Assembly (NCBI RefSeq): GCF_044324785.1
Contig: NZ_CP172127.1
DNA length: 64,000 nucleotides
Direction: 5' to 3' (one strand)
Origin: Escherichia coli
Lineage (GTDB): Bacteria; Pseudomonadota; Gammaproteobacteria; Enterobacterales; Enterobacteriaceae
This document shows positions 6,001-9,000 of this stretch, in pieces; the stretch's first letter is position 1; every line of letters starts with the position of its first letter. Made by a program: the position numbers.

Positions 6001-9000
6001 TTGAACAAAAGATTCTGGCTCGCGTTGAGCGCATTCGCGCGGGCGACGTTTTCGATCCGCAAACTAACTTTGGCCCGCTGGTCAGCTTCCCGCATCGCGA
6101 TAACGTGCTGCGTTACATCGCCAAAGGCAAAGAGGAAGGCGCGCGCGTACTGTGCGGCGGCGATGTACTGAAAGGCGATGGCTTCGATAACGGCGCATGG
6201 GTTGCACCGACCGTGTTCACCGATTGCCGCGACGAAATGACCATCGTGCGCGAAGAGATCTTCGGTCCGGTGATGTCGCTTCTCACTTATGAATCTGAGG
6301 ACGAAGTGATTCGCCGCGCCAATGATACCGACTACGGCCTGGCGGCGGGCATCGTGACGGCGGACCTGAACCGCGCGCATCGCGTCATTCATCAGCTGGA
6401 AGCGGGTATTTGCTGGATCAACACCTGGGGCGAATCCCCTGCTGAGATGCCCGTTGGCGGCTACAAACACTCCGGCATTGGTCGCGAGAACGGCGTGATG
6501 ACGCTCCAGAGTTACACCCAGGTGAAGTCCATCCAGGTTGAGATGGCTAAATTCCAGTCCATATTCTAACCAGGAGGTTTATTTGCAATTTGACTACATC
6601 ATTATTGGTGCCGGCTCAGCTGGCAACGTTCTCGCTACCCGTCTGACTGAAGATCCGAACACAACCGTGCTGCTGCTTGAAGCAGGCGGCCCGGACTATC
6701 GCTTTGACTTCCGCACCCAGATGCCCGCCGCGCTGGCATTCCCGCTGCAGGGTAAACGCTACAACTGGGCCTATGAAACGGAGCCCGAACCGTTTATGAA
6801 TAACCGCCGCATGGAGTGCGGACGCGGTAAAGGTCTGGGCGGATCGTCACTGATCAACGGCATGTGCTACATCCGTGGCAATGCGCTGGATCTCGATAAC
6901 TGGGCGCAAGAACCCGGTCTGGAGAACTGGAGCTACCTCGACTGCCTGCCCTACTACCGCAAGGCCGAGACTCGCGATGTGGGCGAGAACGACTACCACG
7001 GCGGTGATGGCCCGGTGAGCGTCACCACCTCCAAACCCGGCGTCAATCCGCTGTTTGAAGCGATGATTGAAGCGGGCGTGCAGGCGGGCTACCCGCGCAC
7101 GGAGGATCTCAACGGTTATCAGCAGGAAGGTTTTGGCCCGATGGATCGCACCGTCACGCCGCATGGCCGTCGCGCCAGCACCGCGCGTGGCTATCTCGAT
7201 CAGGCCAAATCGCGCCCTAACCTGACCATTCGTACTCACGCCATGACCGATCACATCATTTTTGACGGCAAACGCGCGGTGGGCGTCGAGTGGCTGGAAG
7301 GCGACAGCACCATTCCGACCCGCGCGGCGGCGAATAAAGAAGTGCTGTTATGTGCAGGCGCGATTGCTTCACCGCAGATCCTGCAACGCTCCGGCGTCGG
7401 CAACGCTGAACTGCTGGCGGAGTTTGATATTCCGCTGGTGCATGAATTACCTGGCGTCGGCGAAAATCTTCAGGATCACCTGGAGATGTATCTGCAATAT
7501 GAGTGCAAAGAACCGGTTTCCCTCTACCCTGCCCTGCAGTGGTGGAATCAGCCGAAAATCGGTGCGGAGTGGCTGTTTGGCGGCACCGGCGTTGGTGCCA
7601 GCAACCACTTTGAAGCTGGCGGATTTATTCGCAGCCGTGAGGAATTTACGTGGCCGAATATTCAGTACCATTTCCTGCCAGTGGCGATTAACTATAACGG
7701 CTCGAACGCAGTGAAAGAGCACGGCTTCCAGTGCCACGTCGGATCGATGCGCTCGCCAAGCCGTGGGCATGTGCGGATTAAATCCCGCGACCCGCACCAG
7801 CATCCGGGAATTCTGTTTAACTACATGTCGCACGAGCAGGACTGGCAGGAGTTCCGCGACGCAATTCGCATCACCCGCGAGATCATGCATCAACCGGCGC
7901 TGGATCAGTATCGTGGCCGCGAAATCAGCCCCGGTGTCGAATGCCAGACGGATGAGCAGCTCGATGAGTTCGTGCGTAACCACGCCGAAACCGCGTTTCA
8001 TCCGTGCGGTACCTGCAAAATGGGTTATGACGAGATGGCTGTGGTTGACGGCGAAGGCCGCGTACACGGGCTGGAAGGCCTGCGCGTGGTGGATGCGTCA
8101 ATTATGCCGCAAATTATCACCGGCAATTTGAACGCCACGACGATTATGATTGGCGAGAAAATAGCGGATATGATTCGTGGGAAGGAAGCGTTGCCGAGGA
8201 GCACGGCAAGATATTTTGTGGCAAATGGGATGCCAGTAAGAGCGAAAAAAATGAGTCGTGATTTGAACTAACTCAGGAACCTATCAGATTGAGAGTTACC
8301 GTTCTACTATGAGGACCGAATCCTTATATAAAACACTGAGGTAACTCTCATGCTTCATATCCAGTATTCATGATGCTGGTTTTTTGCTGATATTTAACCC
8401 GAACACTCCTGATACAGACTATTAATTCATTTATCTGCGACAGATTTCATTTTCTGGATATATTATGAGTGAACAAATCAAACAGGATATCGATCTGATT
8501 GAGATTTTATTTTATCTGAAGAAAAAGATTCGTGTTATCCTTTTTATTATAGCCATCTGTATGGCAATGGTGCTTTTATTTCTGTATATCAATAAAGATA
8601 ATATAAAAGTGAGTTACAGCCTAAAAATAAACCAGACAACACCAGGCATACTTGTTAACTGTGATAGCAATAATAACTTTGCCTGTCAGACCACAATGAC
8701 TGAAGATGTTATTCAGCGAATTACTACATTTTTTCACACCAGCCCAGATGTCAAGAACAGAGAAATAAAGCTGGAATGGTCAGGAGATAAGAGAGATTTA
8801 CCAACTGCTGAAGCGGAAATATCTCGCGTGCAGGCGTCTATTATCAAATGGTATGCGTCAGAATATCATAATGGCAGGCAAGTTCTCGATGAGATACAAA
8901 CACCTTCAGCAATTAACAGTGAGCTTTATACAAAAATGATATACCTGACCAGGAACTGGTCATTGTATCCGAACGGTGATGGCTGTGTAACTATAAGCTC

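Follow-up and report, generated by a model that had tools for sequence, protein, structure and literature searches.

Introduction

Choline dehydrogenase of Escherichia coli K-12 (BetA; WP_001159094.1 in the K-12 derivative J53) is encoded in the betI-betB-betA operon, is translated from a TTG start codon and carries both GMC domains, and in all of these respects it resembles the BetA protein that is the subject of this work. BetA proteins of 562 aa are encoded in O157:H7, UTI89 and 042 (WP_001159114.1, WP_001159135.1 and WP_001159138.1, respectively), and in these strains, as in the sequence analysed here, the end of the gene contains a run of seven adenines (A7) and a six-codon extension. Changes in the reading frame, presumably through slipped-strand mispairing, are also a feature of the contingency loci of Haemophilus, Neisseria and Campylobacter; the tracts of these loci, mostly of greater length, are located in the promoter or near the start of the gene, turn expression on or off and differ between members of one clone. 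In E. coli, the rate of insertions and deletions in homopolymers rises exponentially with the length of the run (PMC8510543). Here, we describe the 3′ end of betA in a stretch of 64,000 nucleotides from contig NZ_CP172127.1 (hereafter the window), compare it with the alleles of other complete E. coli genomes, and discuss how the two lengths of BetA probably arose and whether the difference is likely to matter.

The betA reading frame and its end

The chromosome of E. coli strain N3 (NZ_CP031609) matches the window without a difference over 401 bases (100% identity), and in RefSeq the genes of this N3 locus follow each other in the order betI, betB, betA and ykgH, which places betA (1689 nt in N3, with betB upstream and ykgH downstream) in the betI-betB-betA operon. 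N3 is the only one among 5,426 complete genomes to match the window at 99% identity or more over 200-400 nt around the end of betA. The coding features are as follows:

6583-8271, plus strand: betA, encoding oxygen-dependent choline dehydrogenase (as annotated in RefSeq for N3)
8245-8251, plus strand: A7 homopolymer, spanning the final pair of lysine codons common to both forms (AAA AAA) and the A of the ATG that follows
8251-8268, plus strand: the six extra codons ATG AGT CGT GAT TTG AAC, encoding MSRDLN
8252-8254, plus strand: TGA, out of frame in the window and the in-frame stop codon of alleles with six As (A6, 556 aa), from the alignment with K-12 and the tails of nine strains
8269-8271, plus strand: TAA, stop codon of the 562-aa form (TGA instead in O157:H7, UTI89 and LR-60)

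The TTG start codon, with AGGAGG 7 nt upstream, is the same in all nine strains compared, and the product encoded in the window is 562 aa long and ends at TAA. An ORF of 577 aa in a mechanical ORF list was discarded as a mere extension of the gene to an upstream TTG; the C-terminus given in this list is identical to that obtained by reading the codons at the end of betA. Pfam assigns residues 3-300 to GMC_oxred_N (PF00732, E = 8.6e-63) and residues 393-524 to GMC_oxred_C (PF05199, E = 2e-40), and the FAD-binding GxGxxG motif is present as GAGSAG at residues 9-14 of the translation. The protein shares 546 of the 556 residues of K-12 BetA, and from this 98% identity it is predicted to oxidize choline to betaine aldehyde.

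The gene ends with GTA AGA GCG AAA AAA ATG AGT CGT GAT TTG AAC TAA. With seven As the TGA is out of frame and reading runs 18 nt further to give 562 aa, and with six As the same TGA is in frame and the protein stops at 556 aa. A first-pass annotation, made from the sequence of the window, had proposed that the betA frame crosses the AAAAAAA at 8245-8251 and gains MSRDLN before the stop, and this can be read directly from the sequence and from the ORF list. It had also put the length of K-12 BetA at 556 aa and reasoned that six As would bring the TGA right behind the two lysine codons. J53 agrees on both points: its betA is 1671 nt long (556 aa), and in the alignment with the window exactly one A of the run is missing, so that GCG AAA AAA is followed by an in-frame TGA. 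In the database rows labelled MG1655 the matched span is one base shorter, as in J53. The run itself is no statistical anomaly, as AAAAAAA occurs 14 times on the two strands of the window, compared with 21 ± 6 times in shuffled sequences.

Structures and gene content downstream of betA

Two potential RNA structures follow the stop codon:

8290-8350, plus strand: hairpin within the 3′ untranslated region of betA, whose two 11-bp arms (TGAGAGTTACC / GGTAACTCTCA) are perfect inverted repeats of each other, 39 nt apart
8361-8385, plus strand: terminator-like hairpin CCAGTATTCATGATGCTGG (8361-8379), then TTTTTT

The arms of the first structure (8290-8300 and 8340-8350) are kept in every E. coli haplotype examined and the 39 nt between them are variable. 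Folding of window positions 8272-8392 gave a minimum free energy of -37.2 kcal/mol (z = -4.6 relative to shuffled sequence), and a search of Rfam with positions 8000-8700 returned no match. The region may hold a structure conserved at the 3′ end or, alternatively, an element of a recombination junction, and the terminator-like hairpin with its T run is the likely end of the betIBA transcript. The 562-aa extension reaches neither, ending 19 nt before the 8290-8350 hairpin and about 90 nt before the terminator-like one.

Directly after ...GGTAACTCTCATGCTTCAT (from about position 8358 of the window onward), E. coli strains have one of two alternative contents: ykgH-ykgG-ykgF, found in the window, K-12, IAI1 and 042, or an island with the invertase gene ipbA (also referred to as fimX or hbiF) and hyxR, found in UTI89, ST131, O157:H7, LR-28, Trh52 and MEI005. 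Neither of them tracks the A6 or A7 state. In ETEC1701, ykgG (LutC family; 3076-3770 of the locus), which lies downstream of betA, is annotated in RefSeq as a frameshifted pseudogene, unrelated to the betA tract. For a core gene of E. coli, betA itself has an uncommonly diverse and mosaic sequence, with 8-97 differences per 1662 nt between strains, arranged in blocks.

Tract alleles among complete genomes

To count the alleles, 52-nt queries centred on the tract were run in word-11 mode, and the site was found in 5,182 records from 5,178 of the 5,426 complete genomes. Exact counts were obtained for three combinations of tract and flanking sequence: A7 on the GG/G flank (...GCCGGTGAGAGCG / ...GATGTG) has 511 exact matches; A7 on the AA/T flank of the window (...GCCAGTAAGAGCG / ...GATTTG) has 345, mostly from O157:H7 but also from N3, 042 and others; and A6 on the AA/T flank has none. 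The A7 tract is therefore present in at least 856 of the 5,182 records (511 + 345), including O157:H7, UTI89 and 042. The remaining combinations were estimated from evenly spaced samples, in which the allele was called by whether the matched span in the record misses one base, a call with which every fetched example agreed. A7 was found in 10 of 59, 11 of 60 and 11 of 60 sampled rows, nearly all others being one base shorter, and tracts of five or eight As were absent from these approximately 180 rows. Overall, about 18% of records by sampling carry A7, about 81%, like K-12, carry A6 and 0.4% carry a third allele (A6C), in a collection of RefSeq complete genomes that is strongly skewed to clinical lineages.

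The A7 form is widespread and already catalogued, and both alleles are found in successful lineages. RefSeq treats genes of either length as ordinary betA: 1689 nt (562 aa) in N3, UTI89, O157:H7, LR-60, LR-28, 14EC033, Trh52, TUM18530 and 042, and 1671 nt (556 aa) in K-12 J53, ST131, CEA601S, ETEC1701, IAI1, EC21Z-151, MEI005 and MB06234. The exact 562-aa protein of the window is found on 269 public contigs under many accessions, and its 90%-identity cluster has 7,792 members in which 556- and 562-aa sequences are mixed. Of the strain-specific extension suggested in the first-pass annotation, the extension is thus real and the strain specificity is not. The other suggestion made there, a slippage-prone tract, holds on an evolutionary scale, with A6 and A7 found on identical flanks, and fails within a haplotype group, where 345 A7 records face no A6 record.

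The A6C allele (AAAAAAC TGAATCGCGATTTGAAY TAA), seen for example in LR-28 and O84:H7 Trh52, is present in 21 complete-genome records; it has no A7 run and keeps the long frame and the position of the stop codon, and the 562-aa product has the tail LNRDLN. Its ending sits on a locally divergent 3′ segment of betA, which appears to have been acquired from a diverged lineage.

Origin and history of the length difference

The flanking sequences place the two tract lengths side by side. Over about 40 nt to either side of the tract, LR-60 (A7) does not differ from ETEC1701 (A6), and these two strains alone in the comparison have the TATTATG variant. A gene body of IAI1 type joined to downstream sequence of O157 type is found both in TUM18530 (A7) and in MEI005 (A6). 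At a G/T site 12 nt downstream of the tract, each of the two bases occurs with A6 as well as with A7, and A6 and A7 are not separated in a tree of betA. Since both lengths occur on the same flanking haplotypes, the indel either recurred or was shuffled by very short recombination tracts. Within lineages and over short times, the tract is stable in these sequences. In the proposed model, the length difference would have arisen through replication slippage in the A run, and the indel would then have spread by recombination, or have arisen again, in a mosaic betA that borders a variable region.

Which of the two lengths is older is a separate matter, on which we lean only weakly. The A6C allele has the frame and stop position of the 562-aa form and a flank nearest to the window/O157 type, which gives a weak lean to a long ancestor; its four changes in 18 nt, two synonymous and two replacement, speak for neither side. 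On this basis we give slight preference to the 562-aa frame as the original one, and A6 would be a derived deletion that is now in the majority, with support from only 21 genomes with a divergent 3′ segment. A scan for outgroups (one genome per species) recovered 41 loci, including those of Enterobacter, Klebsiella, Citrobacter, Cedecea, Raoultella and Pseudocitrobacter; no Escherichia species was matched, yet all E. coli loci compared match the pattern exactly, and this may reflect a gap in the collection.

Taken as a whole, betA very probably ends in a natural one-base indel polymorphism that originated by slippage and was distributed by recombination or recurrence, with six added residues that probably matter little and with the 562-aa form weakly indicated as the older one.

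Functional consequence of the extension

The A tract encodes residues 555-557 of 562 and lies 31 residues beyond the end of GMC_oxred_C. In the 41 other Enterobacteriaceae species, which were collected with a degenerate DNA pattern (one genome per species) and share a 19-residue BetA peptide followed by I or M, the ends of BetA are highly variable, ranging from PVRR* (Enterobacter, Klebsiella) through PVRKPAQR* (Citrobacter) and PVKRSRA* (Pseudocitrobacter) to PVRKEPVRKIQ* (Cedecea), and none of these tails has a counterpart of MSRDLN. The extension also varies within E. coli, where L/V, M/L and S/N replacements are tolerated and a tail of MSRDVN is found in other A7 strains. Since the tail lies outside the conserved domains and is variable between genera, the six residues are most likely near neutral and can be expected to matter little, if at all, for function.

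It could be argued instead that the extension, or its loss, is adaptive, such that the stability, membrane association or activity of BetA differs between the forms and lineages have been selected for one of them. BetA has been described as membrane-associated and its tail is basic (RAKK), both forms are frequent in very different lineages, and the divergent A6C allele has kept the 562-aa frame and stop, two of its four changes being synonymous. The position of the tail outside the conserved domains, its free variation in length and sequence between genera and the replacements within the extension itself all speak against selection, and a limited literature search found no paper that ties the C-terminal length of betA to a phenotype, so that we regard this explanation as improbable. 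The same search, directed at a betA frameshift, found no mention of the polymorphism; its lone E. coli betA match was a G9D point mutation from an evolution experiment. A bolder version, in which A6 and A7 form a slow toggle under selection, the tail alters BetA stability or membrane association and hence choline-dependent osmoprotection, and O157:H7 and ST95 have kept the long form, is more speculative and would, in our view, be a surprise.

Switching, assembly error and frameshifting

The presence of A6 or A7 on the same flanking haplotypes, together with the steep climb of indel rates with run length, might also suggest a phase-variable contingency switch, with rapid toggling between BetA forms within a population. 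A tract that turns a gene on and off would be expected in the 5′ coding region or in the promoter; this one occupies codons 555-557 of 562, is only 7 bases long and, being in the last codons, makes on/off switching impossible. It would also be expected to vary among close relatives, and all 345 AA/T records are A7, none being A6; neither A5 nor A8 was seen in the sampled rows. The fixation of A7 on the AA/T flank, and a run that is both short and placed at the very end of the gene, therefore argue against a switch, which we consider very unlikely.

Equally unlikely is that the seventh A is a homopolymer error of the assembly and that the true gene is K-12-like. Miscounted homopolymers are the commonest error in long-read assemblies, and N3 stands alone in its close match to the window around the end of betA; however, tract and flanks are identical over about 135 nt (window 8191-8326) in strain 042, A7 is present in at least 856 independent complete genomes and the exact 562-aa protein recurs on the 269 contigs, and so many independent genomes and contigs rule out such an error for practical purposes.

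A programmed ribosomal frameshift or transcriptional slippage site, by which a single allele would make both forms of BetA, has next to no probability: although a +1 shift or the loss of one mRNA A on A7 would yield exactly the K-12 protein, and one added A on A6 the 562-aa form, the run is phased GCG|AAA|AAA|ATG, that is AAA|AAA|A and not the X|XXY|YYZ of a slippery heptamer, the first stable helix begins at 8290, 39 nt past the run (known frameshift stimulators sit about 5-9 nt downstream), appreciable transcriptional slippage in E. coli is reported for runs of about nine or more, and A6C abolishes the run and still has the long form. Because such a shift on A7 would end the protein just as in K-12, small traces of the second BetA form may nevertheless be made in any strain.

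We therefore return to the indel polymorphism, whose biological weight is small and whose main use is in annotation and comparison. A 562-aa BetA is neither a frameshift error nor a pseudogene, and a 556-aa BetA is not a truncation, both being normal E. coli alleles. More generally, a homopolymer beside a stop codon can give rise to alternative protein ends, which are free to drift where the tail is unconstrained.

Comparison with described systems

Compared with K-12, in which six As leave the TGA in frame, the window has seven As and six more residues (MSRDLN), and the two betA genes differ at 65 nucleotides across their first 1662 nt. The long alleles of O157:H7, UTI89 and 042 share the tract and the six-codon extension with the window, and around the tract 042 is the same as the window; the gene bodies of the three are 36-85 nt apart from that of the window and mosaic. 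In UTI89 the extension reads MSRDVN and ends at TGA, unlike the MSRDLN and TAA of the window, and in O157:H7 and UTI89 betA is followed by the ipbA/fimX island, whereas in the window it is followed by ykgH. With the contingency loci of Haemophilus, Neisseria and Campylobacter, betA has in common the presumed slippage mechanism that alters the reading frame; in contrast to their tracts, the betA run is 7 bases long and sits among the final codons, where its length affects only six terminal residues, and it does not vary within lineages.
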